A stretch of 24,000 nucleotides of DNA from Magnetococcales bacterium WMHbinv6 (GCA_002753135.1 PDZV01000002.1:57718-81717); one strand, 5' to 3'. Counted from the stretch's first letter, positions 1,859 to 24,000 are shown. Made by a program: numbers and translations. Notes: generated by a model from the letters alone, not told the origin.

Positions 1859-1917
1859 GCGTTTCCTTCCCCGTTTGCAACTGGCTACGCCAACCCATGG
1901 AACACATAAGCTCTTGC

Positions 1918-2994
1918 TTACATCACCATATCATCCGAGCCCTTACCCATGATCACAATCGATCCTTCTGCCTCCAGTCGACGCGCCGCCTTGAGAATCG
2001 ATTGCTGGGCCGCCTCCACATCCACCACTTTGACCGGACCCAACAACTCCAGATCTTCACGCAACATTTCGGCGGCACGTTCCGACATGTTCTGGAAAAA
2101 TTTCTCCCGCAGGCGATCGTCGGCACCCTTCATGGCGGTCAACAGTTCATCGTTGGAAATTTCACGCAGCAGGGTCTGGAAGCTGCGATCATCCATCAGC
2201 AACAGATCTTCAAACAGGAACATCTCTTTGCGCACGCTCTCGGCCAGCGGATTATCCTCTTCATCCAGGTAGGCCAACAGCTTGTCGGAAATTTCCCGGC
2301 TCATCAGGTTCAGCAACTCGGCAACCTTCTTGGTACCACCGCCCTCCTGTTGCCGTCCGCTGCGCGCCACACCCAGGGCATTCAATTCGGTCAGCAGCGA
2401 TGCCTCAATATCTTCCAGGGCACCGGGAGGCAAGGTATTCATGCGCGCCATGCGATAGACCACCTGCTGCTGCATCTCCGTCGAGAGATGGTCGATGACC
2501 TGCGCGGCATGCTCTTGTTGCAACTGTGAGATAATTAAGGTAACACTCTGCGGATGTTCGCTGGCGAGAAAAGTGGCGACCAGGGCAGGCTCCATGCCGT
2601 TCATCACCTCCCACGGCGTGCTCTTGGGACCAGTTTGCACCTCTTTGAGCAGTTGCCGGGCCCGATCTTTGCCCAAGGTTTTGGTCAGCAGATCGCGAAC
2701 CCGATTCTGCCCACCGCGTACATCGTACATTTTTAATTCAAACTTATCGAGAAACTCCTGGCGCACCGCCTGGACCGCATCCGGTGGCATGACACCCATG
2801 CGGGAAATCACGCGGGAAATTTCGCGCAGTTCGGCCTCCTGCATTCCTTCCATGATTTTTTTGGCATCTTCATCCGGTAACGATAACAGAAAAATGCCGG
2901 CCTTCTCTTTGCCACTTAAACGCATCTTTGCCGTTGTATTACCACGCCGGGAAACGGAATCGCCTCCGGCGCTATCCCATGCCTGTGTGTCCAT
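1918..2994 (-). CDS. fliG: Flagellar motor switch protein FliG
   Basis: 358-aa ORF with FliG-like sequence: LSGKEKAGIFLLSLPDEDAKKIMEGM..., EHPQSVTLIISQL, and a C-terminal torque-helix region ...KVVDVEAAQQSILKAARRLEAEGSIVI. GGAG lies 5 nt upstream of the ATG at 2994. Position after fliF is canonical. Confidence 0.92.
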   Translation of the reverse strand: MDTQAWDSAGGDSVSRRGNTTAKMRLSGKEKAGIFLLSLPDEDAKKIMEGMQEAELREISRVISRMGVMPPDAVQAVRQEFLDKFELKMYDVRGGQNRVRDLLTKTLGKDRARQLLKEVQTGPKSTPWEVMNGMEPALVATFLASEHPQSVTLIISQLQQEHAAQVIDHLSTEMQQQVVYRMARMNTLPPGALEDIEASLLTELNALGVARSGRQQEGGGTKKVAELLNLMSREISDKLLAYLDEEDNPLAESVRKEMFLFEDLLLMDDRSFQTLLREISNDELLTAMKGADDRLREKFFQNMSERAAEMLREDLELLGPVKVVDVEAAQQSILKAARRLEAEGSIVIMGKGSDDMVM

Positions 2995-3082
2995 AGATAC
3001 TCCATCCGCCGCAAACAGAAACCATTCATCCGACCCGACAGGTCGCTGACCTACTCAATCAACCGAATGCCAGGGCCTGTTT

Positions 3083-3199
3083 TTATTCAGCCCAAAACTT
3101 TTTGACACGGCGTTCCGGACTGCTGCGCTGCTCACCCACAAACCACTGCGCCATTGCTGGCCCAAGCACCTTATCCAAGTAGTGCAGCGAGCCTCTCAT
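3083..3199 (-). CDS. Hypothetical 38-codon small ORF in the fliF-fliG gap (speculative)
   Basis: Hand translation of the minus strand gives ATG(3199) MRGSLHYLDKVLGPAMAQWFVGEQRSSPERRVKKFWAE TAA(3085..3083). AAGG lies about 9 nt upstream. It is too short for the ORF track, and I recognise no homology. It is the only start-to-stop ORF I found on the operon strand in an otherwise unexplained 217-bp gap. Confidence 0.2.
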   Translation of the reverse strand: MRGSLHYLDKVLGPAMAQWFVGEQRSSPERRVKKFWAE

Positions 3200-3211
3200 G
3201 ACGACACGCCT

Positions 3212-4855
3212 TTAATCCTGCGCCATCCAGCTCCGGATAATTTCGCGAGCCTCTTCTGGATTGTCGTTGATCATCTGCTGGGCCAGCTTGATGCTGCGAT
3301 CCGGTGTACGTAAACGCATCGGCTCTTCGGAAGGCAACGCACCCACCCCTTCCGCAACCAGTTGTTGATCCAACTCGGCTACCGCTGCCGGAATACCGGT
3401 ACTCTCTGCCATCCGTTCCCCAGTCAGGAACTCCTCGATCATCGGCTTCAAGACCAGAATCAGCAGGGCCAGAATCGCTGAGCCCAACAGGAACTGCAGC
3501 CAGAAATCGGCAGACTGCCAGAAACGTGGTGCGGTGTCTTCAGCTGTCGGTACCCGTTCAAACGGTACACTGGACATCTCGATCGTGTCGCCCCGTTTTT
3601 GGTCAAAGCCGACTGCCCGCTCAACTATCTTTTGCAGGCGGGTCATCTCCTCATCGGAACGTTTTTTATTGCCTGTCTTTTCGCCGGTATTGCTCTCCTC
3701 CGGCGTATCCACCAACACCGCTACGGATAACCGTTTAATCGTACCTACCGGCAGCAGGGTTTTGTTGATGGTTTTGGAAATTTCATAGTTGATGGTGTCG
3801 CGTTCGGTATTGCGGCTCTGTGTGGAACCACCCGTGCTGCTCTTGGCCGTATCGTTGGCATCGTTGGCGCGCACACCCGGTGTGCCACCCACGCCGAAAT
3901 CGCCCCGGCTGCTTTCGTTGACCGACTGCTCACTGCGCGGCACGCCACCTTGTCCGGCAGGATCATAGATCTCCTCCTGCCGCTCGGTGCGCGACAGATC
4001 CAACTCCGCCGTGATGCGAACAATGCTGCGACTGACACCGCTGGGGCTGATACCAATCACCTTGTCCAACATGGCCTGGGCGCGATCCTCCAGGCTCTTC
4101 TCAACCTGCTGCTGCATCGTCAGCGTTTCATCAGCACCCAGACGACCATCTTTCGGAGAACCTTTGCCACCGGCAATCAAGTTTCCCTTGCCATCCAGCA
4201 GGGTCACATGGCTCTCTTCGAGCCCTTCCACAGCCGTTGCCACCAGATGGACAATCCCCTCCACCTGTTTGGGCTGCAATGGTCGCGACAACTCCATGAT
4301 CACCGACGCCGTGGCCGGTTTTGATTCGGTAACAAAAAGTGACGGCTTCGGCATCACCAGATGGACCCGCGCCGAATGAACCGCACTGATGCTCTCAACG
4401 GTCCGTGCCAACTCCCCCTGCAAGGCTCGTTGGTAGTTCATCCGCTGCATAAAGTCGGTCATGCCGACCAGATTGCTCTTGTCGAACAACTCAAAACCGA
4501 CACCATTGCTGCCCTGCTTCGGCAACCCCTGCGTGGCCAACTCCAGACGCAAGTCGTAGACGCGATCTGCCGGAACATCAACTGAAGTGCCACCCGGACC
4601 AATCTGGTAGGGCACCTTCATTTTGTTCAACTGCTCGATGATGCGTCCCGTCTCCTCCTGAGGCAGACCGGAAAATAGCATCTTATACGCTGGCCGTGTG
4701 GCAAACCAAATCATCACGGTCAACGCCAGCAGGGTCGTTCCAATCGCCAAGATAAGCCCATTGCGTCCACCCAGAGGCAACTGTGCCAAAAAGCGGGTCG
4801 CCGTATCAATCAAATTCATGGGCGTCTGAGGCACGACAGCGGGAGATTCAGCCAT
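3212..4855 (-). CDS. fliF: Flagellar MS-ring protein FliF
   Basis: 547-aa ORF. It has an N-terminal TM segment (LILAIGTTLLALTVMIWF), a YscJ/FliF periplasmic region (KMLFSGLPQEETGRIIEQLNKMKVPYQI..., DRVYDLRLELATQGLP, MNYQRALQGELARTV), a second TM near the C-terminus (FWLQFLLGSAILALLILVL) and a cytoplasmic tail. Confidence 0.95.
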   Translation of the reverse strand: MAESPAVVPQTPMNLIDTATRFLAQLPLGGRNGLILAIGTTLLALTVMIWFATRPAYKMLFSGLPQEETGRIIEQLNKMKVPYQIGPGGTSVDVPADRVYDLRLELATQGLPKQGSNGVGFELFDKSNLVGMTDFMQRMNYQRALQGELARTVESISAVHSARVHLVMPKPSLFVTESKPATASVIMELSRPLQPKQVEGIVHLVATAVEGLEESHVTLLDGKGNLIAGGKGSPKDGRLGADETLTMQQQVEKSLEDRAQAMLDKVIGISPSGVSRSIVRITAELDLSRTERQEEIYDPAGQGGVPRSEQSVNESSRGDFGVGGTPGVRANDANDTAKSSTGGSTQSRNTERDTINYEISKTINKTLLPVGTIKRLSVAVLVDTPEESNTGEKTGNKKRSDEEMTRLQKIVERAVGFDQKRGDTIEMSSVPFERVPTAEDTAPRFWQSADFWLQFLLGSAILALLILVLKPMIEEFLTGERMAESTGIPAAVAELDQQLVAEGVGALPSEEPMRLRTPDRSIKLAQQMINDNPEEAREIIRSWMAQD

Positions 4856-4970
4856 GGTATTTTGTTTCCATAGTCACTACTTCAGAATGGTACAACCTTT
4901 ACACCGTTTACGGCACACCAGCTCAACAGCAGCCTGGCACCATAAGCAGCGCCACCAGAATGTCACATGC

Positions 4971-5288
4971 CTATGCAGTCGGCATCGTCATGATTTCGTG
5001 ATACACTTCCAGCGCCTTGTTGCGTACTTGCAACAGCAGGCGCAAATGAAGCTCCGCCTCGGAGGCAGCAATCTGAGCTTCATGCAGACTTACACCAGCA
5101 TTACCTAACAAGGCACGCTCCGTCAAGTCTTTGGATTCTTTTTGCAGGCGATCCGTCTCTTTGACCTGTTGGGCCAACATGGTCGAAAAGGTCTCCCAGG
5201 CTCCCCCTTTGCCACTACCCGCCACACTGGTCGTCAGGGAAGGCAACATGCTGGGCAGCGGTACACCAGATACTCCGTTTAGTGACAT
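4971..5288 (-). CDS. fliE: Flagellar hook-basal body complex protein FliE
   Basis: 105-aa ORF with a FliE-like C-terminus (VSLHEAQIAASEAELHLRLLLQVRNKALEVYHEIMTMP). AAGGAG RBS lies directly upstream. It sits between flgC and fliF. Confidence 0.88.
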   Translation of the reverse strand: MSLNGVSGVPLPSMLPSLTTSVAGSGKGGAWETFSTMLAQQVKETDRLQKESKDLTERALLGNAGVSLHEAQIAASEAELHLRLLLQVRNKALEVYHEIMTMPTA

Positions 5289-5303
5289 GCGACTTCTCCT
5301 TTA

Positions 5304-5729
5304 TCAACGCCCGATTTCCAACGCCTTCAAAGCCATCGCTTTGGAAGCATTCAATACCGTCACATTCGCCTCATAGGCATGGGTCGCCGCCATCATGTTG
5401 ACCATCTCGGTCACCGTGTCCACATTCGGCATTTCCACATAGCCATCTGCCTTGGCATCCGGGTGGTTGGGATCATACTGCCGTCGGGGGGGACGTTCAT
5501 CGATGTGAACCCGCTCCACGGCCACGCCGGTGGATCCGGCAATCTGTTCCTGACTCAACATTTCATCGAACGGTTGCGCCGCAAAAACCGGATCCCGTCG
5601 CTTGTACGGTCCACCCTCAACCGTGCGCGTGGTTTGCGCGTTGGCCACATTCTCCGAGGTAATATTCATCCGCATCCGCTGCGCCGTCAACGCGGAGGCT
5701 GTTACCCGAAACGACGTCAAAAAATCCAT
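5304..5729 (-). CDS. flgC: Flagellar basal-body rod protein FlgC
   Basis: 141-aa ORF with a rod-protein N-terminal motif (ASALTAQRMRMNITSENVANAQTT) and C-terminal motif (VDTVTEMVNMMAATHAYEANVTVLNASKAM). AGGGGG RBS lies upstream. Confidence 0.93.
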   Translation of the reverse strand: MDFLTSFRVTASALTAQRMRMNITSENVANAQTTRTVEGGPYKRRDPVFAAQPFDEMLSQEQIAGSTGVAVERVHIDERPPRRQYDPNHPDAKADGYVEMPNVDTVTEMVNMMAATHAYEANVTVLNASKAMALKALEIGR

Positions 5730-5804
5730 TCTGACCCCCTGTTCCCGATTTACTGCACTGGATCATTCCAGAGTGATGCCGATCAACCCTGAAACGCAGA
5801 TACT

Positions 5805-6218
5805 TTATCGCACATTACCATCGATCATCATACGCATCGTACCGATTTGACCGCTTAACGACTGCGCTGCATAGTTGTACAACAACTGGTTGGCCGCCTG
5901 TTGAGCCATCTCCTGCTCCAGGTCAACGCTGTTACCGTCCCCTTTGGGAATCGGTGTCTCCACCTCCTGCATACGCCCTGCCACCGGCCCTTCATACCCT
6001 TTGGGCAGATGTTTGGCGGTGGTACGCGCCATCGGCAACTCATCGCGAGGTGGCAACGACTCTTTCAGGACATCTTCGAACTCAAACCGCTTGGCCTTGT
6101 AGCCCGGCGTATCGGCATTGGCCACATTGGAAGTGATAATTTCCTGACGCTGCTGCCGCAAATCGAGCAGATTGGCCTTGAATTGTCCTGCGGGCCCCAA
6201 CAAACTTAATTCCGCCAT
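5805..6218 (-). CDS. flgB: Flagellar basal-body rod protein FlgB
   Basis: The track ORF extends to 6296. The internal ATG at 6218 (MAELSLLGPAGQFKANLLDLRQQRQEIITSNVANADTPGYKAK...) is preceded by GAGGAG at a 6-nt spacing and gives a normal FlgB N-terminus. The upstream 26 codons (MLVDYWWFFRF...) look non-coding. Confidence 0.9.
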   Translation of the reverse strand: MAELSLLGPAGQFKANLLDLRQQRQEIITSNVANADTPGYKAKRFEFEDVLKESLPPRDELPMARTTAKHLPKGYEGPVAGRMQEVETPIPKGDGNSVDLEQEMAQQAANQLLYNYAAQSLSGQIGTMRMMIDGNVR

Positions 6219-6332
6219 ACCCGTCTCCTCAGCCGGTCGCAAAGCCGTTATGGTACGCGGCAAGAAACGAAAAAACCACCAATAATCCACCAGCAAGGCC
6301 GCAATTGTCCCCCACGCAATCCCTGTACATTG

Positions 6333-6492: not shown

Positions 6493-7443
6493 TCATGCAG
6501 CAAAACGTTGTTGAATGGCCTGCCGCAACTGCTGTGCCACGGCGTGAATACGTGCCGCAGCCTGTTCCATCCAGGCCGCATCCGCCAACTCTTCGGGACG
6601 AAACGGGTAGAGCAAGCCCCGGGATGAGGCGGCGTAGGCTCCATTGCCATCCTCGCCCGCACCGGCCACGATGGCATCCAGAGAACCTCCTTGCGCACCA
6701 ATACCCGGCATCAAAAAGATGGCGCGCGGTGCCAAACGGCGCAAAGCCAGCGCCGCTTGCGGATAGGTGGCACCAACCACCATCCCAACCTGGGCATATC
6801 CCTGCTTGCCTTCCGTCCCTTCACCCCAACAGGCAACCAGTCGGGCCATCTGTTCCGCAACCGTCAAGCCAGGTTGCCCCGCCTCCCACAGGGGCAGATC
6901 CTGCAACTCCCCGGAAGAGGGATTGGAGGTTTTGGCCAGCACAAACAGGCCTGCTGCCCGGTTTGCCTCCTGAAAGGGACGAATACCGTCGCTGCCCAAA
7001 TAGCCGTTCACCGTCAGAGCATCCACTTGCCAGCTATTGGCCTCCGCAAAGAGAGGATGGCGTGCCGCCAGCCAGGCCGTGGCATAGGCCCCTGCCGTAT
7101 GCGCCACATCGTTGCGTTTGGCATCCATGATGATCAGCAAACCTTTTGCCCGCAACAGGGCAATGGTGCGCTGCAGAGCCCGCAAACCGGCAAAACCATA
7201 CTGCTCATAAAAGGCGGCCTGCGGTTTGTAGGCCACGGCCATCTCTGCGGTTGCCTCCACCACCACCCGATTGAAGGCAACCAGCGTCTCTTCCAGCAAA
7301 TCATGGTCCGGTTGACGGCGCAACGCCTCTTGCAAATAGCCCGGAAAGGCTTCGATCTGCGGATCCAGGCCGACAATCACCCGTGATTCACATTGGCGCG
7401 CCCGTTCGATGAGACGGTCGCTAAAACTCTCTTGCCCCTGCAT
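6493..7443 (-). CDS. pyrF: Orotidine 5'-phosphate decarboxylase, type 2 (long form)
   Basis: ORF 6493..7479. ODCase motifs are present: VIVGLDP, AYKPQAAFYE, IIMDAKRNDVAHT, ALTVNGYLGSDG, FVLAKTSNPS, FLMPGIGAQGG. The likely start is the ATG at 7443 (MQGQESFSDRLIERA...), 5 nt after the ccdA stop. The upstream start at 7479 remains possible. Confidence 0.85.
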   Translation of the reverse strand: MQGQESFSDRLIERARQCESRVIVGLDPQIEAFPGYLQEALRRQPDHDLLEETLVAFNRVVVEATAEMAVAYKPQAAFYEQYGFAGLRALQRTIALLRAKGLLIIMDAKRNDVAHTAGAYATAWLAARHPLFAEANSWQVDALTVNGYLGSDGIRPFQEANRAAGLFVLAKTSNPSSGELQDLPLWEAGQPGLTVAEQMARLVACWGEGTEGKQGYAQVGMVVGATYPQAALALRRLAPRAIFLMPGIGAQGGSLDAIVAGAGEDGNGAYAASSRGLLYPFRPEELADAAWMEQAAARIHAVAQQLRQAIQQRFAA

Positions 7444-13863: not shown

Positions 13864-14760
13864 TCAGGCAATCTGCTCTTTGGCCATGCGCCAGCGCCGC
13901 CGCTCTGCACGCCAGCTGCGCCATAAAATGAGCAATTTTTCGCGCAATGAGAGACGAACCCTCGGCCCGAAACAGAAAAATTCCAGCTGTCGCACCCGCT
14001 GCAAACAGCGGTGGTAAATGGCCCCCATCAACAAGGCGGGCAACAGCGCCTGCCGCTCTTCCGGCAAACGTATCAGAGTGTCCGCCTGCTGGTAGGCCTG
14101 TTCCGCCTCAACCGCCAGGCGGCGCAGCACGGCAGCCAGCGGTGGGCTCCAGCGACCGGCGATAATCTCCTCCTCCGTCACCCCGGCTTCGGCCAACCAG
14201 GCCTGTGGCAAATAGAGGCGGCCCATGCGGGCATCCTCTGCCACATCACGGATAATGTTGGTCAGCTGCAACGCCACCCCTAAACGATCGGCAAACTGTT
14301 TTTCCCGTTCCGGCGACCAGCCCGACAACGGGCGGCCATGGGTGAAAATACGCAGCGCAATCAAGCCGACCGTCACCGCCACCCGGTAACAATAGAGCTG
14401 CAACTCGGCGAGGGTCTGATAGCGACGCGGATACAAATCCATCTCCATGCCGCTCAGAATATCAAAAAAAGGTTCAACCGGCAGGTCAAACAGGGTGCGA
14501 TAATGAGCCAGTTCGACAACAATGGGATGCGTTACCCGCTCGCCAGCAAAGGCCTGCTGTAAACGGTGTCGCCACTCGTGCAAACGGGCAGCGGCCTCGG
14601 CAACCGGCAAACCGCTATCCACCAGGTCATCCACCTCCCGGCAAAAAGCATAGACCGCATACATGGCACCACGGCGGGGCGGTGGCAAAAAGAAAAAGGG
14701 GAGAAAAAAAGAGGAGTGCGCTTCCAGCGTCTTGCGCCGACAGTAGGCAGCCGGAGTCAT
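13864..14760 (-). CDS. hpnD: Presqualene diphosphate synthase HpnD (squalene/phytoene synthase family)
   Basis: The start at ATG 14760 forms an ATGA overlap with the hpnC stop: MTPAAYCRRKTLEAHSSFF...AMYAVYAFCREVDDLVD (first Asp-rich motif). YCYRVAVTVG and LQLTNIIRDVAEDARMGRLYLP (second Asp-rich motif) follow. The track ORF extends to 14808. Confidence 0.85.
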   Translation of the reverse strand: MTPAAYCRRKTLEAHSSFFLPFFFLPPPRRGAMYAVYAFCREVDDLVDSGLPVAEAAARLHEWRHRLQQAFAGERVTHPIVVELAHYRTLFDLPVEPFFDILSGMEMDLYPRRYQTLAELQLYCYRVAVTVGLIALRIFTHGRPLSGWSPEREKQFADRLGVALQLTNIIRDVAEDARMGRLYLPQAWLAEAGVTEEEIIAGRWSPPLAAVLRRLAVEAEQAYQQADTLIRLPEERQALLPALLMGAIYHRCLQRVRQLEFFCFGPRVRLSLREKLLILWRSWRAERRRWRMAKEQIA

Positions 14761-15689
14761 ACCATGACCTGAGCCAACACATTTTTGAAACAAACCGCCC
14801 GATCCCATACCGAAAGGCGCGGTCGCACCCGCAGGGTGTTGCCACCCGATGCCTCAATTTTATTCAGAACCGCCAGACCGCAGGCGCTGATCATCGCCAA
14901 CTCCAGATTGAGAGGCCAGGGTACCTGACGCCATAAGCGATCACCAGACCAGAACATATCGCGAACCTGGGCCGTCAAATGGAGAATCAAACTGCCGACT
15001 GCCGGAGAAAAACGGCGCTTGAGAATCATCTCCTCGCTCACCTCGAAGCGATCCATCTCCTCTTTCGGCAAATACAATGGGCGACCACTCCAGGCATCCT
15101 GACCCAAATCTTGCAGATGGTTGGTCAACTGCAACGCCGTGCAGACCGCATCCGAACAGGCTGCCCGGCAGCTCAACGGCACACCGGAAAGACGTTCCTC
15201 GCGCAACTCCTGCTCCCCGGCCTCGTAGGCCAACTCCCCGGCCAAATGCAGCACGATTCGACCGACCGGATTGGCCGAATAGCGGCAATAGTCCAACAAC
15301 TCCTCCAGCGTATCATAGCGCTTGTTGGTCACATCCATGCGAAAGGCGATCAACAGCTGGTGCAGGGGTTCGCTGGGCAGATCGGTGGTGCGAATCACAT
15401 AGGACAAGGCACGGAAAATCGGATGATCCGGTTGCCCGGCCTCTGCCCGCTCCAGACGGCGGGTCCAATCATCCAGCAACTGCATCCGTGTGGCCTCATC
15501 GCGGCCTGGCAGATCGGCAAAATCATCCGCCGTGCGGGCAAAGGCATAAATGGCATACAGAAACGGGCGCAAACGAGGTGGCACCAACAAAGAGGCCACC
15601 GGAAAATTTTCCTCCCGATTATGGACAATTTCCAGACAATAGCGGAAATCATCCTCCAGTGCTGGCGGAACCAGATTGGCGTTAAACAT
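14757..15689 (-). CDS. hpnC: Hydroxysqualene synthase HpnC (squalene/phytoene synthase family)
   Basis: 310-aa ORF with ENFPVASLLVPPRLRPFLYAIYAFARTADDFADL, DYCRYSANPVGRIVL and ALQLTNHLQDLGQDAWSGRPLYLP. These are the HpnC-type signatures, and the gene lies immediately upstream of hpnD as in hpnCDE loci. Confidence 0.85.
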   Translation of the reverse strand: MFNANLVPPALEDDFRYCLEIVHNREENFPVASLLVPPRLRPFLYAIYAFARTADDFADLPGRDEATRMQLLDDWTRRLERAEAGQPDHPIFRALSYVIRTTDLPSEPLHQLLIAFRMDVTNKRYDTLEELLDYCRYSANPVGRIVLHLAGELAYEAGEQELREERLSGVPLSCRAACSDAVCTALQLTNHLQDLGQDAWSGRPLYLPKEEMDRFEVSEEMILKRRFSPAVGSLILHLTAQVRDMFWSGDRLWRQVPWPLNLELAMISACGLAVLNKIEASGGNTLRVRPRLSVWDRAVCFKNVLAQVMV

Positions 15690-15756
15690 GCGCGTCCTGT
15701 TCTCCGAGGATTGACAGTCAGAGGGGGCAAGGTCGGTTGGCCGGTTGCAACAGAGG

Positions 15757-16854
15757 CTAATCGGCCTCTGTCACCTCTCTGCCCTGCCCGGCCAATTGTT
15801 CTGCCCAGTCGAGCAAATTTTTCCGACTGGCCACAAATACACCACTTGCGCCAAAATGGAAGGGAATCCAGTTGACCTGCAACGTCGGCCAGCGTGCCCG
15901 CATGCGTTGCTCGGTCTCATCCCCCACTTCGCAAATCAACACCCCCTCGGCAGTCAAATGGTCGGCTGCCTGCCGCAAAATGGGCTCCACCACCGCCAAT
16001 CCATCCACACCACCATCCAAGGCCAGGGCCGGTTCATGCCGGTACTCCTGCGGCAAGACGGCCATGCTCTGCTGGTCCACATAGGGGGGATTGCTGACAA
16101 TCAGGGAGTAGCGGCTTTTACCCAATTGGGCAAACAGATCCGATTGACGCCATGACACCCGACTGTTCATGCGAAAACGACACCCATTGGCCGCTGCGAC
16201 CGCCAAAGCGGCGGGGGAAACATCCACACCCTCCACCTGTGCTTCGGGAAAGGCCATGGCAAACGCAATCGCCAAACAACCACTTCCTGTACCCAAATCC
16301 AGAATGCGCTTCGGCTCCCCCTTGTCGAACAGCCGACGCAATTTTTTCGCATCGGCCAGCATGTTTTCGATCCGCGAACGGGGAATCAACACAGCCGGGG
16401 TTACCAGATAGAGATGTCCGGCAAAGGGGGCTTCACCGACAACATAAGCTGCTGGCAGGCGTTGCTGCAACCGCTTGTGCAAAAACTCCGTCAAAATGGC
16501 GGCAAAGCCCGGCGGCGGTTGCCGCTGCAGCCAGTTCTGCCAACGAGCCAACACCTTGGCTATCTTGCGCCGCTCGCCGCCCTCGGAACGCAAACGGTCC
16601 ACCTCTTCTGCCGGCAAAACCCGTAACAAGGCATGATAGACCAAAAATTCTGCCTCAAGGCACGCTTCCTGCATGCCGTTCTCGAGGCTGACTTCCGCTG
16701 CCGTTATTTGCGCGGTGGCCTCATCCAGCCAGCCCTGCAGCGTTGGCTGCCGCCCAGCAGAAACAGTTTGTCTGTTGCGGCTATGACATTCGGTGCGTTT
16801 CACGATTGACGACCTATAGTATCTGTTGGTTACGATAATTGCAGCATGCGTCAT
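15757..16854 (-). CDS. prmB: Ribosomal protein L3 N5-glutamine methyltransferase PrmB (HemK family)
   Basis: Collinear with the PrmB pattern: VLIPRS, ILDLGTGSGCLAIAFAMAFPEAQVEGVDVSPAALAVA, SLIVSNPPYV, LPQEYRHEPALALDGGVDGL, GVLICEVG. The start is uncertain. The first about 18 codons from 16854 are A/T-rich with rare Arg codons, so the GTG at 16803 or another downstream start is plausible. Confidence 0.8.
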   Translation of the reverse strand: MTHAAIIVTNRYYRSSIVKRTECHSRNRQTVSAGRQPTLQGWLDEATAQITAAEVSLENGMQEACLEAEFLVYHALLRVLPAEEVDRLRSEGGERRKIAKVLARWQNWLQRQPPPGFAAILTEFLHKRLQQRLPAAYVVGEAPFAGHLYLVTPAVLIPRSRIENMLADAKKLRRLFDKGEPKRILDLGTGSGCLAIAFAMAFPEAQVEGVDVSPAALAVAAANGCRFRMNSRVSWRQSDLFAQLGKSRYSLIVSNPPYVDQQSMAVLPQEYRHEPALALDGGVDGLAVVEPILRQAADHLTAEGVLICEVGDETEQRMRARWPTLQVNWIPFHFGASGVFVASRKNLLDWAEQLAGQGREVTEAD

Positions 16855-16939
16855 TCATTCCGGATTGACCAGAAAAAAAATGGGGCATCACCCTCTAAAA
16901 GGTGCTTGTTGTTCGTCGTTAATTATCGTACCCTGTGTG

Positions 16940-16968
16940 TTGGAATTTTGACTTGTTGGATTTTTGAC
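16940..16968 (+). repeat. Tandem direct repeat TTGGAATTTTGAC / TTGGATTTTTGAC (13 bp, 1 mismatch, 16-bp register) in the prmB / EBP1 divergent intergenic region
   Basis: Read directly at 16940-16952 and 16956-16968. It is about 80-108 nt upstream of the EBP1 ATG at 17048. An 8-bp stem (ACCGCTCG...CGAGCGGT, 16976-17002) follows. Confidence 0.35.
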
Positions 16969-17047
16969 GCGCTCCACCGCTCGTTGCCGCCGTTCGAGCG
17001 GTCTGTCAACCTTGGCCTCTTCCGGAAAGGGTATCAAGTTCATCATC

Positions 17048-18043
17048 ATGTATGGAATCATCGGCAAATCTCCCAGCATGCAAAAGCTGTACAGAATGAT
17101 CCAACGGGTCGCCACCTCCAGTGCCACCGTCCTGATCCAGGGCGAAAGCGGCACCGGCAAGGAGTTGATTGCGCGTGCCCTGCACGATCTCTCTCCCCGC
17201 AAAGAGCAACCCCTCATTCCGGTCAACTGCGGTGCCATTCCGGAAGATCTTCTGGAATCCGAGCTGTTTGGCCATGTGCGCGGTGCCTTTACCGGTGCGG
17301 CTCATACCCGTGTCGGTCGTTTTGAACTGGCCAACAACGGCACCCTGTTCCTGGATGAAATTGGCGACATGAGCCCGAAGTTGCAAGTAAAAATGTTGCG
17401 CGTTCTGCAGGAAAAAGTGGTGGAACCGGTCGGTGCCGTCAAAACCGTCAAGGTGGATGTGCGCGTCATCGCCGCCACCCATAAAAACCTGGAAAAAGAG
17501 GTCGCAGAAAATCGTTTTCGCGAAGACCTTTTCTACCGCTTGAACGTGGTACCCATTCATGTCCCGCCGCTGCGCGACCGTGGCGATGACATTCCCTTGC
17601 TCGTTGACCATTTTCTGAATAAATTTGCAGAAATCCAGGGCAAACGGGTCACGATCGATCAGGAAATTCTGGAGATGTTTTTCGCCTATCGCTGGCCGGG
17701 CAATGTGCGCGAACTGGAAAATTTGATCGAACGCCTCACCGTGCTGTCGGAAGGACAAGTCCACCGCGATGATATTCCCGAAAAAATATTAAATGGCAGT
17801 GCGGAACCGCTCTCCGGGGAATCGGCAACCGTTGTCGTCCCTGATTTTGGCAATATCATTGCCAACCTGGGCGAAGGGGTTGATTTTAATCATGAAGTGG
17901 ACTCTTTCGAAAACCAGTTGATCCTGTCCGCGCTCGACAGCACCGGATGGAACAAAAACAAGGCCGCCCAATTGCTCAATCTCAACCGTACCACGCTGGT
18001 TGAAAAGATCAAGAAAAAGGGCCTGGAACGCATGGAGGGTTAA
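17048..18043 (+). CDS. Sigma-54-dependent transcriptional activator (bEBP) consisting only of an AAA+ core and a Fis-type HTH; no N-terminal sensor domain
   Basis: [46 protein letters not shown]... carries Walker [16 protein letters not shown] (GAFTGA loop), [10 protein letters not shown] (Walker B), [20 protein letters not shown] and a C-terminal [28 protein letters not shown]. The AAA+ core begins within a few residues of the ATG at 17048. Even the longest ORF (TTG 16964) adds only 28 non-domain residues. Confidence 0.88.
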
Positions 18044-21016
18044 GTGGTCTGTTCTACGCTGCGCGTCAATCACCGGTTGCTCTCTTGGAACGCTGACACA
18101 CTGCGTCTTCTGACGGTGGGTCTGTTGTGGTTACTGCTCTTTTCGTGGGCCCATGAAGCCGCTGCCTTCTCCACCATCCTCAAGGTGAGCCGCGAAGAAA
18201 AGGGCAAACGGGAAGTTCTCTCTTTCAACACCCCCCCCGGTGCCGGACGGCCACGTCTGGAACTGCTGACGCCGGAGACGTTGCGTCTGGTGGTACCCGG
18301 CCTGCTGGCACTGCCGGCTACTGCCCTTGACACCGAACAGTCACAGTTGATCGGCAGCTTTAAAGTGGAAGGTCTGCAAAGCGAGGAGATGGGTCTCGAC
18401 ATTACCATCGGCTTGAAAAAAATCAATCTGTCTTTTCGCGACGCCCTCGGCACCCCTGATCCGGTTCTGGGTACACCCTATCGCCTGGAGATCGACACCC
18501 CCATTGCTCCCACCAGCGTCAAAGAAAATCGCATTCTGGAGAGCCGTGTGCTGGCAGGACGTGACGGTACCTTGTTGATTGTCTCGCACACCGGCAGCTC
18601 CCAGGTGGAGTCGGCAGTGGATCTGGGGGCGCATCTGTTGCGACTGCACTGGAAAGGTGCCCTGCTCGATCCGGGCTGGCGGCATGCCAAACCGGAAGGG
18701 TTGGCCAACCGTGTTCTGGCCTATCCGTTCCCGGAACAGGTGGAGATGGAGGTACAGCTCGATTCCAGTGTTTCCGATGTTCGCTTCCATCAAAGCAATG
18801 AGGCGGGTCTGTATATTGTCGCCATTTCCAACCGATCGCAGCTTGGGCGGCAGGCGGATGTCGAGGAGATGATCCGCCAACGCAAAGAGCAGCTGGCCAG
18901 CGGTGAGGTGCGCCCTTTGAACCGTCTCGACCCCGCTTTTGTCGCCCGCCCGGATCGTACCGTGGTGTTGAACGGCCAACTGGTCGATGAGGTCTATTAC
19001 CTGAAAAGCGCCCAGGCTGCCGCCAAGGATCATCGTTACGCCCGGGCACGTGGTTTTTTGCGACGCCTGCTGACGGTATTTCCGGATACACCCAACCGCC
19101 AGTTCGTTGAATTTTATCTCTGGGATCTGGCCTACAAAATGCGCTGGAAACCGGGTTGGTTACTGGCCGGATTGGGCAATCTGCTGGCACGTTATCCCAA
19201 TACCATCCATTATCCCTACTACCGTCTGCTGCAGCTGCAGTTGCTGAACCGGGCCGGCCTCTATGAAGAGGCAGAACATATCCTTTGGGATCCAAACCTG
19301 CCCAAAGATAATGTCCGTGTCTGGGTGGAACGGGGTCATTCCGCCTTGGGTCTGGCTCGTTCCAACCAGAATGATCCCACCTACTGGAAAGCCGCCGGGG
19401 AGTATCTGCGCAAAGTTCTGGAGCTTACCGGCGACAAGGGGGATGCCAGCGCCGAAGCCCATTACCTGCTGGTACGGGCGGCACAAAATCCCAACAACGA
19501 CGGTCCCAGTGCCACCAAACTGCTGGACGGGCTGCAAGCCGAGCATTTGGCTTTCATCGCCAATCGTCCTGACTGGTTGATGTCCATCGCCGATATTTAC
19601 TACGAAAACCGGCATTATGATCGGGCTTTCAAATATTACAGCCAGTTTTTAACCAACTATCCGACCCTTACCCGCATCACGCCCTGGGCAACCCTGCGGG
19701 CGGCAGAGAGCAGCTGGCAACTGGGCCGCAGCGCCGAAGCAGGCAGCAGCGAACAACGGGATCGCTATTTCGATGCCCGCAACCTCTATAGTGCCCTGCG
19801 AGAAAAATATCCCAAAACCGATGCCGCAGTCTGGGGACAGGTGTTCCAATTGCGGATGGAAGATGGCAGCGATATTGCCACCCGTCTGAAGCGGATCAAC
19901 AGCGTGGCCAAAAATATTCGTCTGCCGGATGCCCTCTCTGAATTGTTGCTCGCCAAAGCAGAACTGTTGGGCGAAGATGGCCGCTACGAAGAGGCTCTGG
20001 TCACTTTGAACCGGATCATCGCCTCGACCATGGAGATCAAAATGGTTGCCCGTGCCATCAAGCTGAAGCGGGAATATTTAATCACCGGTATGCAAAAAGA
20101 TCTGGCCAATGATCGACCGGAACATGCCATCCTGCTGGCCGAACTGAATGGCGAGGATCTGCGCAACAACCCCAATCTGATACCGGTGCGCACCTATCTG
20201 GCCGAAGCGCTGTTGCGCGTCGGCATGCCCGAACAGGTGACAACCCTGCTGGATGGATTGACCACACCGGCTGCCAGCAGCCTGAAACGTCTCAGTACCG
20301 CCTTTGCCGCTGGACGGTGGCCAGAGGTGTTGGCACCACCAGAAATGGGTGATACGGTCAAGGCGATGAGCGAAGCCCATCCGACGGTGGGTACCGGTGC
20401 CCCCATGATCGATGAAAACGCCTCCGCAGAAGAGGCTGTGGCCCACGCGGCCAAACTGGCCGAACCGGTGCCCGATGGCGATGCCGGGGCTTCCATCACC
20501 GAACTGGTCCCCGTGGAAGAGGCACGTGTCCGCCTGGACGAAGCGGCTCGCCTGCTCGATTTAAGAGAGTGGGAAGCCATTTTACGCCTGCTGGAAAAAT
20601 TGCCGGATAACCTGCTTAACCAACAAGGTCAAGAAAAACGCCTGCGCCTGATGGCCAAAGCCGAAGAGGGGCGCGAACGCTATCCTTTCGCCGTACAGTA
20701 TCTGGAAGATCTGTTGGCAGGCAAAAAACTGGCCGATGGCAACGATTATTATTGGTACGCCTCGGTGCTGCAACAGTGGAAGGGTGACAGCAAGGCCCTG
20801 CCCGCCTACCTGCGGGTTAGCGAGGAGGCCAGCGATAAGGACGTGCAGGCCTTGGCCCATATGCGAGTTGGCGATATTATGCAACGGGAGGGCAATTATC
20901 CCGGTGCCCGTGACCATTTCCGTGAGGCGGCCCGACTCGCTCCGGGTTCGGCCCTGGCCACCGTTTCCCAAGAAAATGCTTCGCAACTCGAGATGGCTAT
21001 GGAGGTTGCCAAATAG
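18044..21016 (+). CDS. 990-aa exported protein: signal peptide, beta-rich N-terminal region (about 270 aa), then extended TPR / YbgF-BamD-like helical repeats
   Basis: The GTG at 18044 directly abuts the EBP1 TAA, and there is no in-frame ATG before the signal sequence. The signal peptide is LRLLTVGLLWLLLFSWAHEAAA|FST. The N-terminal part has short alternating beta-like segments (VLSFNTPPGAGRPRLELLTPETLRLVVPG; LLIVSHTGSSQVESAVDLGAHLLRLHW). From about residue 310 there are repeated helical-pair motifs (YARARGFLRRLLTVFPDTPNRQFVEFYLWDLAY; YDRAFKYYSQFLTNYPTLTRITPWATLRAAESSWQLG; YEEALVTLNRII; YPGARDHFREAARLAPGS). I recognise no catalytic motif. Confidence 0.75.
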   Translation: MVCSTLRVNHRLLSWNADTLRLLTVGLLWLLLFSWAHEAAAFSTILKVSREEKGKREVLSFNTPPGAGRPRLELLTPETLRLVVPGLLALPATALDTEQSQLIGSFKVEGLQSEEMGLDITIGLKKINLSFRDALGTPDPVLGTPYRLEIDTPIAPTSVKENRILESRVLAGRDGTLLIVSHTGSSQVESAVDLGAHLLRLHWKGALLDPGWRHAKPEGLANRVLAYPFPEQVEMEVQLDSSVSDVRFHQSNEAGLYIVAISNRSQLGRQADVEEMIRQRKEQLASGEVRPLNRLDPAFVARPDRTVVLNGQLVDEVYYLKSAQAAAKDHRYARARGFLRRLLTVFPDTPNRQFVEFYLWDLAYKMRWKPGWLLAGLGNLLARYPNTIHYPYYRLLQLQLLNRAGLYEEAEHILWDPNLPKDNVRVWVERGHSALGLARSNQNDPTYWKAAGEYLRKVLELTGDKGDASAEAHYLLVRAAQNPNNDGPSATKLLDGLQAEHLAFIANRPDWLMSIADIYYENRHYDRAFKYYSQFLTNYPTLTRITPWATLRAAESSWQLGRSAEAGSSEQRDRYFDARNLYSALREKYPKTDAAVWGQVFQLRMEDGSDIATRLKRINSVAKNIRLPDALSELLLAKAELLGEDGRYEEALVTLNRIIASTMEIKMVARAIKLKREYLITGMQKDLANDRPEHAILLAELNGEDLRNNPNLIPVRTYLAEALLRVGMPEQVTTLLDGLTTPAASSLKRLSTAFAAGRWPEVLAPPEMGDTVKAMSEAHPTVGTGAPMIDENASAEEAVAHAAKLAEPVPDGDAGASITELVPVEEARVRLDEAARLLDLREWEAILRLLEKLPDNLLNQQGQEKRLRLMAKAEEGRERYPFAVQYLEDLLAGKKLADGNDYYWYASVLQQWKGDSKALPAYLRVSEEASDKDVQALAHMRVGDIMQREGNYPGARDHFREAARLAPGSALATVSQENASQLEMAMEVAK

Positions 21017-21021
21017 CCACC

Positions 21022-22506
21022 ATGATGGATAGACAGGATGTGGCCGGATTGTCTCAGCCACCTGCGAAAACATCCCCTGCCGGTAAAGATCAACTCGTCA
21101 TCCTGGTGGGAAAACGTGATGAGCCGCTGCTGATTCTGGCCAACCAGTTGCGTGCCCTCGGTGTTGCCTCTCTGTTGCTTGCTGACGGTGCGGAAATCAA
21201 GCTGCATCTGTCGCAAAATTCACTGCAGCGTCCACCCAGCCTGGTGGTGGTGGATGTGGAAACGGTCCGTAATGCCCTGGAACTGATTCGCGAGTTGACC
21301 TTTCTCTATCGGGGGTTGCCGGTGTTGGCAGCTGCCTGCAAAGGGAGCGTGGCCGATGCCCGTGAAGCCATCGATGTGGGAGCGGCTGACTATTTTCTCC
21401 TGCCGGTTGGCGATGACAAGCTTTCGGGTCTGTGGAGCAGCTTTGGCAATCAATATTTTGATCCAGAACTGGGACGGGGCCGCCGTCTGATTACCAATGA
21501 CGAGCGCATGCGCCGTATCCTGATGCAAATTCGCCGTGTCGGCCAAACCAACGCCACCGTTTTGATTCAAGGTGAGAGCGGCACCGGTAAAGAGTTGATC
21601 GCCCGCTTTCTGCACCAGGTCTCCAATCGGAGCAAGGGCCCTTTTGTTGCCATCAACTGTGCCGCCTTGCCGGAAAATTTGTTGGAATCCGAGCTGTTTG
21701 GCCACGCCAAAGGGGCCTTTACCGGTGCCATGGTCGATCATAAGGGTAAATTTCTGCAAGCCAATGGCGGCACCATTTTTCTTGACGAAATTTCTGAAAT
21801 GTCCTTAAACCTGCAAGCCAAACTGTTGCGGGTGCTGCAGGAACGGGAGGTGGATCCGGTCGGTGGCCGTTCACCGATTGCCCTGGACGTGCGGGTGGTC
21901 GCCTCGACCAACCGGGATCTGCGCCAATGGGTGGACCAGGATAAATTTCGTGAAGATCTCTTTTACCGCCTGAATGTGTTTCCGGTGCAGCTGCCAGCCC
22001 TGCGCGAACGTCCAAAAGATATTTTGCAGCTGAGTGAACATTTTCGGGTACGCTTTATCGCGGAACTGGGGCGCAACAATATTGCCTTTTCCAACCCGGC
22101 GATGGCCGCTTTGCAAACCTATGACTGGCCCGGCAATATTCGTGAATTGGAAAATGTCATCCACCGCGCCCTGCTGATGGCAGAAGGTCGGGAAATCCAA
22201 CCGGAAGATTTGATGATTGATGTGCCGATCACCAGCAACAGCCGCTTTACGCCAGCCGCCAGCAGCGACCAGGATGTGCTGGAACCACCACTGCCCAGCT
22301 ATTTTGCCAACCATGCAGCGGGCGGCGATGATGACGATAAACAACGCCTGCATTTGCCGGTTGGTACCACCGTGCGGGAGATGGAAGAGTTTTTGATCTT
22401 CCGTACCCTGGATGAGGTCAACGGCAACCGCACCCGTGCCGCTGAACTGTTGGGGATTTCCATCCGTACTTTGCGCAACAAGTTAAACGAGTATGCGGCT
22501 CGTTAA
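21022..22506 (+). CDS. Sigma-54-dependent transcriptional activator with a degenerate receiver-like N-terminal domain (FleQ/FlbD-style architecture)
   Basis: 494-aa ORF. The N-terminal domain of about 140 aa has a receiver-like layout (QLVILVG..., SLVVVDVE, LPVLAAACKGS, GAADYFLLPV). The AAA+ core follows: [64 protein letters not shown]. The C-terminal HTH is NRTRAAELLGISIRTLRNKLNEY. Confidence 0.88.
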   Translation: MMDRQDVAGLSQPPAKTSPAGKDQLVILVGKRDEPLLILANQLRALGVASLLLADGAEIKLHLSQNSLQRPPSLVVVDVETVRNALELIRELTFLYRGLPVLAAACKGSVADAREAIDVGAADYFLLPVGDDKLSGLWSSFGNQYFDPELGRGRRLITNDERMRRILMQIRRVGQTNATVLIQGESGTGKELIARFLHQVSNRSKGPFVAINCAALPENLLESELFGHAKGAFTGAMVDHKGKFLQANGGTIFLDEISEMSLNLQAKLLRVLQEREVDPVGGRSPIALDVRVVASTNRDLRQWVDQDKFREDLFYRLNVFPVQLPALRERPKDILQLSEHFRVRFIAELGRNNIAFSNPAMAALQTYDWPGNIRELENVIHRALLMAEGREIQPEDLMIDVPITSNSRFTPAASSDQDVLEPPLPSYFANHAAGGDDDDKQRLHLPVGTTVREMEEFLIFRTLDEVNGNRTRAAELLGISIRTLRNKLNEYAAR

Positions 22507-23003
22507 TGAGCATGGGAGGCAGGGTACCAATCACAATGGCGACCTCTTTTGAGCAAAAGCGGCTGACATGGCTGCTGTTATTGTGTACAGCCCTGTTGCT
22601 GACCGCCTGCAGCCCCAACAGTGCCGCCACCTCTGGCAGCATTGAGGCGGAACTGATCGCCGGTGATGGCTTTCTGCAACATTTGCAGCGCTATTTTTTT
22701 CCGAAATCCTACTGGAAGAAAAAAAGTGAACAGATGCAGGAGCGGGTCAAAGGCTACCAGGAAACCTTCAACGAAAAGGCCAAGATCTATCATCAACTGT
22801 TGAGCAAACGTCGGGAAAAGGTCAACACCGCCATCGCCCAGGCAGAAGCGGCGGGCAAACCGGTGGAAGAGGCACGGCGACTGGTGATTCAGGAGTTTCG
22901 CGACACCCTGGATCCGATCCGCGAAGAGACGCGACAACTGGGGAAAGATTTGCGCCGTGCGATGACACTGCTGGCACAGGCAGAGATGGCCTCCCGGCAA
23001 TAA
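22506..23003 (+). CDS. Small predicted lipoprotein with a charged, helical mature domain; function unknown
   Basis: The ATG at 22506 shares a base with the EBP2 TAA (TAATG); an alternative ATG lies at 22536. The lipobox is LTWLLLLCTALLLTAC|SPNS. The mature part is K/E/R/Q-rich and predicted helical (KKKSEQMQERVKGYQETFNEKAKIYHQLLSKRREKV...EETRQLGKDLRRAMTLLAQAE). Confidence 0.65.
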   Translation: MSMGGRVPITMATSFEQKRLTWLLLLCTALLLTACSPNSAATSGSIEAELIAGDGFLQHLQRYFFPKSYWKKKSEQMQERVKGYQETFNEKAKIYHQLLSKRREKVNTAIAQAEAAGKPVEEARRLVIQEFRDTLDPIREETRQLGKDLRRAMTLLAQAEMASRQ

Positions 23004-23076: not shown

Positions 23077-24000
23077 TCAACGAAACGATTTGCTCAACAA
23101 CGGGGTGATTTCTGCCGCCGGTACCGGCTTGCTGTACAAATAGCCCTGCACGGCATGGCAACCGGCTGTCCGCAACACCGCCTCCTGGGCTGCCGTCTCC
23201 ACCCCTTCGGCCACGGTTTTAAAACCGAGCGAACGGCCCATGGCAATAATGGCGTTGACAATTTCCAAACTGTCCAGATCCCCCGGCAAATCGCGGACAA
23301 ACGATTGATCCACTTTCAGGGTGGTGATGGGAAACCGTTTGAGATAGCTCAAGGAGGAATAACCGGTGCCGAAATCATCCACGGCAATCTGGATACCTCG
23401 TTGCCGCAAGGCCGCCAACAGCTGGATGGTTTTTTCCACGCTGACCATGGCCGATGATTCGGTAATTTCCAGCTCCAGGCGGTCGGGAAAGAGACGGGTT
23501 GCGGTCAAAATTTCTTCCACCACCCGGACGATGCCCTCATCGCGCAGCTGCTGGGAAGCAATATTGACGGCCATATGCAGGTGCATATAGCCCATGTTGT
23601 GCCACTCTTTGAGTTGGGCACAGGCGGTGCGCAGCACAAACATACCCAGCGGCACCACCAAACCACTCTCTTCGGCAGCCGGAATGAACAAACCGGGCGA
23701 AACCAACCCCTTGCCAGGGCGCAACCAGCGCACCAGGGCTTCAAAGCCGAGAATGGTCCCGGTCATCAAATCGACCTTGGGTTGGTAATAGACGGCAAAT
23801 TCGTTATGTTCCAGGCCATCGCGAATATCCTGGACCATCTGCAGGCGATCTTTGGTACCGCGCTGCATCTCATCGGAGAAAAATTGATACTGGCAATCAC
23901 CCGGACTGCGGCGCATGGCCGTTTGCGACTTGACGACCAGATCATCGACATTGCTGCCGTCGTTGGGATAGATGCTGGCACCGATCATCAGCGAGATGAA
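23077..24000 (-). CDS. c-di-GMP phosphodiesterase EAL domain preceded by the end of a GGDEF domain (gene continues beyond the right window edge)
   Basis: A complete EAL signature set is present: YYQPKV, GFEALVRW, AVNIA, LELEITES, IAVDDFGTGYSSLSYL, LKVDQSFV, VAEGVET, VQGYLYSKP. The reading frame stays open upstream of the first Met to the window edge (FISLMIGASIYPNDG..., the typical C-terminal strand of a GGDEF domain). Confidence 0.88.
   Translation of the reverse strand, partial: FISLMIGASIYPNDGSNVDDLVVKSQTAMRRSPGDCQYQFFSDEMQRGTKDRLQMVQDIRDGLEHNEFAVYYQPKVDLMTGTILGFEALVRWLRPGKGLVSPGLFIPAAEESGLVVPLGMFVLRTACAQLKEWHNMGYMHLHMAVNIASQQLRDEGIVRVVEEILTATRLFPDRLELEITESSAMVSVEKTIQLLAALRQRGIQIAVDDFGTGYSSLSYLKRFPITTLKVDQSFVRDLPGDLDSLEIVNAIIAMGRSLGFKTVAEGVETAAQEAVLRTAGCHAVQGYLYSKPVPAAEITPLLSKSFR

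Follow-up and report, generated by a model that had tools for sequence, protein, structure and literature searches.

The window analysed here is a stretch of 24,000 nucleotides from Magnetococcales bacterium WMHbinv6 (GCA_002753135.1, PDZV01000002.1:57718-81717), for which a search for a plasmid origin returned no match. It contains a compact module of four genes on the same strand (Table 1), which respectively encode a sigma-54 activator of the enhancer-binding protein class (EBP1), a 990-residue exported TPR protein, a second sigma-54 activator (EBP2) and a small lipoprotein. The four tightly joined open reading frames were first noticed in a preliminary description made from the sequence alone, and we recovered them at the same coordinates. 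The GTG of the TPR protein gene abuts the TAA of EBP1 (18041-18043), the TAG of the TPR protein gene (21014-21016) is separated by 5 nucleotides from the ATG of EBP2, and the TAA of EBP2 (22504-22506) overlaps the ATG of the lipoprotein gene by one base. The module had been taken to begin at position 16940, which cannot be a start codon because its frame is closed by a TGA at 16949; this position instead marks a non-coding 13-mer that is conserved and belongs to the earlier of the two tandem leader elements. The EBP1 frame is open from a TTG at 16964, and the start shared by its orthologues is the ATG that opens the sequence MYGIIGKS. A scan of the module for strong internal promoters or terminators found none. 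The four genes are predicted to constitute a single operon, specific to the order Magnetococcales.

Table 1. Coordinates of the module, its upstream elements and its neighbors in the window
Feature	Position	Strand	Details
EBP1	17048-18043	+	331 amino acids; ATG start; AAA+ core ~17057-17560; HTH_8 ~17903-18016
Exported TPR protein	18044-21016	+	990 amino acids; GTG start
TPR protein: signal peptide	18044-18166	+	Sec type; ends in conserved AxA
TPR protein: AMIN-like beta-sandwiches	18182-18832	+	AlphaFold2 model
TPR protein: TPR solenoid	18989-20308	+	AlphaFold2 model
TPR protein: low-confidence linker	20339-20500	+	AlphaFold2 model
TPR protein: C-terminal CpoB-like TPR unit	20513-21010	+	AlphaFold2 model
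EBP2	21022-22506	+	494 amino acids; pseudo-receiver ~21091-21456; AAA+ 21487-21987; HTH_8 22372-22494
Lipoprotein	22506-23003	+	165 amino acids; Cys35 at 22608-22610 in lipobox LLTAC; mature domain ~130 amino acids
Promoter-like block	16905-16935	+	CTTGTTG 16905-16911, 17-nucleotide spacer, CGTACCCT 16928-16935
Leader element GTTGGA(A/T)TTTTGAC, two tandem copies	16939-16952 and 16955-16968	+	at or just past the predicted transcription start
Sigma-54-like GG-N10-GC motif AGGCACGCTTCCTGCA	16658-16673	+	inside prmB
prmB	15757-16854	-	upstream neighbor of EBP1
hpnD-hpnC-prmB	13864-16854	-	conserved neighbors
EAL gene	23077-23988	-	downstream flank
flgB-flgC-fliE-fliF-fliG-fliH-fliI	~1-6218	-
fliH homologue	599-1858	-	419 amino acids
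Proximal GG-N10-GC motif	~6297-6312	-	weak; ~80 nucleotides from the flgB ATG
Sigma-54 consensus TGGCACAGCAGTTGC	6525-6539	-	3' end of a pyrF-like gene, ~300 nucleotides upstream of flgB

Conservation of the module

A profile search with the TPR protein over collections holding one genome per species recovered 39 loci, all of them from Magnetococcales, and found no relatives of this protein outside the order. In every locus long enough to judge, the order of genes is prmB (on the opposite strand), EBP1, TPR protein, EBP2 and lipoprotein. The same order is seen in Magnetococcus marinus MC-1, in which the first three genes of the module encode WP_011712001, WP_011712000 and WP_011711999, followed by an open reading frame of 159 codons. 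Hence the synteny, which the preliminary description had proposed to look for beyond very close relatives, extends throughout the order. The median gaps at the three successive junctions, as computed from the most upstream possible start codons, are -2, +4.5 and -14 nucleotides, and gaps of 20 nucleotides or less are seen in 34/36, 33/36 and 28/33 loci respectively. Such a four-gene arrangement is far beyond what is expected by chance. Across these loci sequence identity falls to 36% for the TPR protein and to 27% for the lipoprotein. The retention of gene order and tight coupling while the TPR protein diverged to this extent and the downstream and far-upstream flanks were reshuffled points to selection on co-expression. 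The sole neighbors conserved order-wide are hpnD, hpnC and prmB, the first two being genes of the squalene/phytoene-synthase type (SQS_PSY), and this set is always divergent from EBP1. The downstream flank is variable, with an EAL gene in the window, a CSD-domain gene in one genome and GGDEF and kinase genes in another.

The two sigma-54 activators

Pfam searches recovered a Sigma54_activat domain in both EBP1 (E-value 4e-75) and EBP2 (4e-72), followed in each by AAA_lid_14 and a C-terminal HTH_8 domain (E-values 3e-12 and 5e-12, respectively). The Walker A and Walker B motifs, the ESELFGH motif, the arginine finger and sensor II are retained in 34-36 of the 36 orthologues of each protein. The sigma-54-contacting GAFTGA motif is exact in all 36 EBP2 orthologues and in 29 of the 36 EBP1 orthologues, the remaining seven having GSFTGA. 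The complete sigma-54 contact cores and HTH domains initially ascribed to both proteins are thereby confirmed. Pfam likewise bore out the TPR repeats of the exported protein when the profile comparisons suggested for all four products were run; the fourth protein matched no family.

EBP1 orthologues are 65-94% identical, and in all lineages their conserved start lies only three residues ahead of the AAA+ domain. As the protein begins at this domain it has no sensor domain. A subclade of loci (L017, L018, L027, L030, L031, L033 and L037-L039) has EBP1 proteins of 371-390 residues counted from MYGIIGKS, as against ~331 elsewhere, the 40-50 extra residues forming an insertion in the C-terminal part of the protein ahead of the HTH. 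The first ~150 residues of EBP2 gave no Pfam match. Alignment of this region with CheY and NtrC shows a receiver fold in which the acidic pair is absent, the conserved threonine is replaced by alanine and the conserved lysine by leucine. An aspartate at the phospho-acceptor position is found only in the clade of the window; other lineages have A, S, L, V or F there, with an alanine in MC-1. With the acidic pair, threonine and lysine lost and the phospho-acceptor aspartate mostly lost, the domain is a pseudo-receiver throughout the order, and is predicted from these substitutions to be incapable of phosphorylation. The absence of an intact input domain from both activators, as initially described, therefore holds for EBP1, which lacks a sensor, and for EBP2, whose receiver is degenerate.

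We found no kinase domain among the genes of the window, in line with the preliminary description, but this does not hold in general: in MC-1 (L042 12203-14902) a gene for a dCache_3-HisKA-HATPase-REC hybrid kinase begins 3 nucleotides past the fourth gene. There it coexists with the alanine at the EBP2 phospho-acceptor position, and a kinase gene is not present at this site in other genomes.

The two activators had also been described as visibly paralogous. They do have in common the generic core of enhancer-binding proteins, but at 42-47% identity they are no closer to each other than EBP2 is to activators from other phyla (46-50%). In comparisons with activators of solved structure the best match of EBP1 was FleQ of Pseudomonas aeruginosa (8p53, 306 bits), followed by ZraR (303 bits) and FlrA (271 bits), and that of EBP2 was FlrC of Vibrio cholerae (4qhs, 278 bits), followed by ZraR (265 bits). 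The top NCBIfam model for EBP2 is FlbD (NF050807), which aligns through the receiver and gives 411 bits, its cutoff being 750; EBP1 scores 316 bits on the same model. Orthologues of EBP2 bear the automatic name FlrC in the annotation of the Joint Genome Institute (JGI). Following Walker A, EBP1 has ARA and EBP2 has ARF, as judged by eye, as against the ARN of FleQ, in which cyclic-di-GMP binding also involves the arginine of LFRS and an ExxxR motif; furthermore, given its start at the AAA+ domain, EBP1 has no counterpart of the N-terminal domain of FleQ.

The exported TPR protein

Both exported products of the module, first described as such from the window alone, have export signals that are conserved among their orthologues. 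That of the TPR protein is a Sec signal peptide with typical n-, h- and c-regions, ending in a conserved AxA that is followed by FF(S)T or FS; no further hydrophobic segment was seen in the model. An AlphaFold2 model of the full-length protein (mean predicted local distance difference test score, pLDDT, 84.9) comprises a signal helix, 16 strands in four groups (residues 47-263), a TPR solenoid (316-755), a disordered linker (766-819) and a second TPR unit (824-989). Residues 37-310 modeled on their own are all-beta (pLDDT 88.8), and the two helical regions together contain ~40 helices, in addition to Pfam TPR matches. The organization of the 16 strands in four groups suggests tandem AMIN-like sandwiches. 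Consistent with this, Foldseek searches with the N-terminal domain recovered the AMIN domain of Myxococcus xanthus PilQ (3jc8, E-value 7e-6), Escherichia coli AmiC (4bin, probability 0.99) and the B2 domain of Neisseria meningitidis PilQ (4aqz, probability 0.96). A likeness to YbgF/CpoB and BamD was seen for the C-terminal TPR unit, and residues 899-976 match the YbgF model TIGR02795 with 40 bits, under its cutoff.

The top match of the full-length model in the whole PDB was 9hmf_K (E-value 3e-14), a chain of the Campylobacter jejuni motor scaffold deposited by Drobnic et al. 2025 (PMC12222027). Generic eukaryotic TPR proteins came next, from 1e-9, which is weaker by 4-5 orders of magnitude. 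We infer that this chain is PflA because its 773 residues correspond to residues 16-788 of PflA, the construct that was expressed (PMC11870540). PflA is described as having a signal peptide and a beta-sandwich at its N-terminus, followed by 16-17 TPRs (PMC11870540, PMC12222027); the sandwich was named PflA-AMIN after its likeness to the AMIN domain of PilQ, and PflA-like proteins are stated to be widespread and invisible to sequence searches (PMC11870540). Supplementary Table 5 of the same study lists for MC-1 a FlgY homologue (WP_011711761.1) and no PflA- or PflB-like TPR protein, an absence explained by the fact that the survey took only genes near flagellar clusters (PMC11870540). The TPR protein of the module, with its predicted tandem AMIN domains, could fill this gap and is a candidate PflA-like spoke or scaffold of the motor.

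The TPR family is small: an exhaustive phmmer search with the N-terminal domain against 1.84 billion representative sequences recovered 17 proteins, all of 850-1007 residues bar one fragment of 88 residues, and every member of known source is from Magnetococcales. A profile search with the same domain through a word index gave one protein and carries little information.

The lipoprotein

The lipobox cysteine is present in all 33 complete orthologues from metagenome-assembled loci, in which the length of the mature protein is constant at ~130 residues. The orthologue from MC-1 retains the hydrophobic N-terminus and has no cysteine. Orthologues differ little or not at all in the motifs D..(7)R...P..YW..K and Y...L..RR, of which the D, YW, Y and R positions are invariant, and the mature domain is probably helical. 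The residue at position +2 is never aspartate, which by the rule established for E. coli suggests sorting to the outer membrane. Searches of the 165-residue protein against Pfam, NCBIfam and the PDB returned no family. FliX, FlgY/MotE, FlgP and Skp were each considered as possible relatives and rejected, as there was no family match and nothing beyond coiled-coil noise; specifically, none of 31 orthologues (0/31) showed a match to MgtE_N or any other domain in the comparison for the E-ring proteins FlgY, MotE and FlbB, which carry an ARM-like (MgtE_N-type) domain behind a long helix, and the FlgY homologue of MC-1 is a gene separate from the module.

Upstream regulatory elements

Upstream of EBP1, and only there, lies a conserved block of the form CTTG, 17 nucleotides, CGTAC(C/T)CT, 3-5 nucleotides and the leader element GTTGGA(A/T)TTTTGAC. 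The spacing between its first two parts is identical in loci order-wide, including MC-1; the block as a whole was located at L042 5815-5865 and in most of L001-L041. The promoter-like part matches the sigma-70 consensus weakly (3/6 + 3/6 for the window, with the -35 box reaching 5/6 in some loci) and was not called by a simple promoter scan. With up to one mismatch the 14-mer of the leader occurs upstream of EBP1 in 37 loci and in the window, and the tandem second copy is restricted to the clade of the window. Elsewhere it has three matches in ~1 Mb, the one that was checked lying inside a coding sequence; there are no further copies in the window, and the leader matched no Rfam family. We read the block as a probable promoter of uncertain sigma type, with an operator or leader element at the putative start of transcription. 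A role of the 14-mer as a regulon-wide operator was rejected, since ~1 Mb held no other meaningful copies. In Caulobacter, flbD lies in the fliF operon, FlbD represses that operon at a site in its promoter, and FliX is the partner of FlbD; by analogy, the leader element could be an autoregulatory site. In many loci the ATG of EBP1 is directly preceded by a related motif, TTTTGAC(A/G)(T/C)C.

A sigma-54-like motif, AGGCACGCTTCCTGCA, is found 306-584 nucleotides upstream of EBP1 in 27 of 34 loci. It lies within the prmB codons for G-M-Q-E-(A/P)-(C/Y)-L, a motif also present in E. coli PrmB, and is lost where those residues change. As a potential sigma-54 promoter of the operon it thus appears to be largely a coding constraint. 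The Tyr/Cys codon within it always ends in C, which hints at an additional constraint. Near the flagellar cluster of the window, TGGCACAGCAGTTGC is a perfect sigma-54 consensus, and the weak motif closer to flgB aligns with a good motif, AGGCACGATTACTGCA, in the nearest relative, L044. The dependence of flgB on sigma-54 that these motifs imply is suggestive only.

Functional implications

With confidence and doubt evenly balanced, we favor the proposal that the module is an operon of the flagellar type, whose single transcript would encode one FleQ-like and one FlbD/FlrC-like activator along with a scaffold protein resembling PflA. The four cistrons would be translationally coupled behind the conserved promoter-like block and leader. 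EBP1 would be a FleQ-like AAA+ activator with its own HTH; being devoid of a regulatory domain, its activity should track its abundance or need a partner encoded elsewhere. EBP2, as an FlrC/FlbD-like protein, would presumably be gated by protein contacts, in the manner in which FliX gates FlbD. Between them, the two activators would turn on flagellar promoters that depend on sigma-54. The AMIN-like sandwiches of the TPR protein would attach it to peptidoglycan, and its solenoid would form a PflA-like spoke or scaffold round the motor, with the small helical lipoprotein serving as its partner or anchor. A flagellar connection had already been guessed in the preliminary description, and the match to PflA and the kinship of the activators with FleQ, FlrC and FlbD provide independent support for it.

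Several observations weigh against the flagellar proposal. The proximity of the module to the flgB-fliI cluster and to the gene for a cyclic-di-GMP enzyme, on which the original guess was based, is not kept across the order: the flagellar genes are 11.7 kb from the module in the window itself, none occur within 10 kb of it in MC-1 or the other loci examined, and the neighbors that are conserved, prmB and hpnC/hpnD, are not flagellar. The match to PflA has low TM-scores (0.23/0.28), matches between long TPR solenoids arise easily, and AMIN domains are also found in PilQ and AmiC. The margins by which FleQ and FlrC lead ZraR are small, and the FlbD score of EBP2 falls far under the cutoff of that model; given such margins we regard the flagellar kinship of the activators as a lean and not as proof. 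Finally, the lipoprotein matches no flagellar family and the perfect sigma-54 consensus upstream of flgB is not conserved in L044.

Some of these same observations would fit an envelope structure other than the flagellum, in which the AMIN-TPR protein and the lipoprotein would be parts of a type IV pilus machine or of some polar or division apparatus associated with peptidoglycan, with the two activators as its dedicated regulators. AMIN and TPR proteins are indeed combined in such systems, as in PilQ with PilF/Tgl, and TPR proteins function with Tol-Pal in the form of CpoB. The leading structural matches of the N-terminal domain are the AMIN domains of PilQ and AmiC, the C-terminal TPR unit is YbgF/CpoB- and BamD-like, the lipoprotein shows the residue pattern suggestive of outer-membrane sorting, and no flagellar gene is among the conserved neighbors. 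We nevertheless consider this reading rather unlikely, as it is PflA that best matches the architecture of the TPR protein as a whole, the models for CpoB, BamD and PrsT all score far under their cutoffs, the activators lean toward flagellar relatives and no pilus or Tol-Pal gene is adjacent.

The preliminary description itself had envisaged a switch, in which EBP1 and EBP2 form hetero-oligomers and the co-translated envelope proteins feed back the state of the envelope or of assembly as a checkpoint. The lack of a working sensor in both activators, the strong conservation of the arrangement and the translational coupling, which would set the stoichiometry of the activators with the exported proteins, are compatible with such a switch, and there are established precedents in PspA-PspF, HrpRS-HrpV, FleQ-FleT and FliX-FlbD. 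However, as none of the four proteins is membrane-spanning, there is no visible link between periplasm and cytoplasm: the exported proteins carry no signals other than those for cleavage or lipid anchoring, and the short cytoplasmic N-termini of both are not conserved. Moreover, the activators are only 42-47% identical, are separated by a 3-kb gene, differ in architecture and each possess an HTH of their own, which makes the hetero-oligomeric switch improbable. A bolder version of the flagellar proposal, to which we would give slightly less credence still, is a new type of self-contained flagellar assembly checkpoint, in which the sensor-less activators would work as a mixed hexamer tuned by the fate of the PflA-like scaffold and the lipoprotein, with the leader as an autoregulatory operator; the tuning might operate via coupled translation and export or via a putative membrane partner. 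An operon of convenience, in which the activators run unrelated sigma-54 regulons and the exported proteins act independently, appears the least probable, for although bacterial operons sometimes mix functions and no target promoter has been tied to either activator, the order and tight coupling persisted despite the divergence of the TPR protein and the reshuffling of the downstream and far-upstream flanks.

Relationship to known systems

Under the favored flagellar proposal the closest structural parallel is PflA of C. jejuni, which like the TPR protein combines a Sec signal peptide with an AMIN-like sandwich at the N-terminus and a long TPR superhelix, and is soluble in the periplasm (PMC11870540, PMC12222027); MotC, MotK, CC_2058 and FlcA have been proposed as its relatives. 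Unlike PflA, with which it has no detectable sequence homology, the protein of the module has tandem sandwiches of 16 strands in place of one, is longer (990 versus 788 residues) and bears an extra C-terminal TPR unit past the disordered linker. Its gene lies between those of two activators and not in or next to a flagellar cluster, the setting by which PflA-like genes were previously collected (PMC11870540).

The activators are reminiscent of the FleQ/FlrA and FleR/FlrC cascades of Pseudomonas and Vibrio, in which two HTH-bearing sigma-54 activators are likewise encoded in one locus, the gene orders being fleQ ... fleS-fleR and flrA-flrB-flrC. EBP1 differs from FleQ in having neither its N-terminal domain nor the asparagine after Walker A, and EBP2 differs from FlrC and FleR in its apparently non-phosphorylatable receiver; moreover, it is a scaffold-like gene, and not a kinase gene, that stands between EBP1 and EBP2. 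In having a receiver-like domain outside classical phosphotransfer and a gene co-transcribed with structural genes, EBP2 resembles FlbD of Caulobacter crescentus. It differs from FlbD in its sub-cutoff score, and the module shows no FliX-like Pfam match, its fourth product being exported. A comparable linkage is that of fleT, which lies in the fliE operon of Rhodobacter. HrpR/HrpS and FleQ/FleT, like the module, involve two activators encoded close by, of which one or both lack a regulatory domain. However, HrpR and HrpS are closely paralogous, lie side by side, act only jointly and are both devoid of N-terminal domains, in contrast to the more distant and separately placed EBP1 and EBP2, and FleT lacks a DNA-binding domain, whereas EBP1 and EBP2 each keep one.

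The PrsK-PrsR-PrsT set of PEP-CTERM/exosortase systems also encodes a sigma-54 activator together with a very large exported TPR protein, the ~900-residue lipoprotein PrsT. The scores on the corresponding models are well below their cutoffs (TIGR02915, 355 bits for EBP2 and 340 for EBP1 versus 503; TIGR02917, 17 versus 312 bits), and the context of the module has no kinase, exosortase or PEP-CTERM protein.

Literature searches turned up no publication about the module or its MC-1 accessions, in agreement with the initial impression that the arrangement is not a described system. The individual kinds of component, namely sigma-54 activators, PflA-like scaffolds and lipoproteins, are already known, as is the co-transcription of activator and structural genes (flbD, fleT); what is undescribed is the order of an activator, a tandem-AMIN PflA-like protein, a pseudo-receiver activator and a lipoprotein behind a unique conserved leader. 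Magnetococcales are very fast swimmers with elaborate sheathed flagellar bundles, and to our knowledge hardly anything has been described of the accessories of their motors or of how these are regulated. The module offers a strong candidate for a PflA-like spoke with tandem AMIN domains, together with the two likeliest sigma-54 regulators. If this is correct, the PflA/E-ring scaffold would extend to a deep-branching proteobacterial class and the module would represent a new wiring of regulator and scaffold genes. The order-wide promoter and leader would provide an easy experimental entry point.

Other observations in the neighborhood

Genes with GGDEF or EAL domains occur near the module in varied position and orientation, namely that of the window, L040 4530-5438, L041 5704-7149 and 15088-16026, and L042 3256-4650, with a GGDEF gene located between hpnC and prmB in both MC-1 and L041. 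They may recur merely because these genomes are rich in genes of this kind. The Pfam FliH match in the FliH homologue of the window covers only 115 residues (105-219), the model having 128 positions. In L030, from Ca. Magnetaquiglobus chichijimensis, the 16-mer AGGCACCTGGATTGCT is found four times (2576, 2852, 3200 and 3824, minus strand) at a spacing of ~280-620 nucleotides, a pattern suggestive of a repeat lying upstream of the module.

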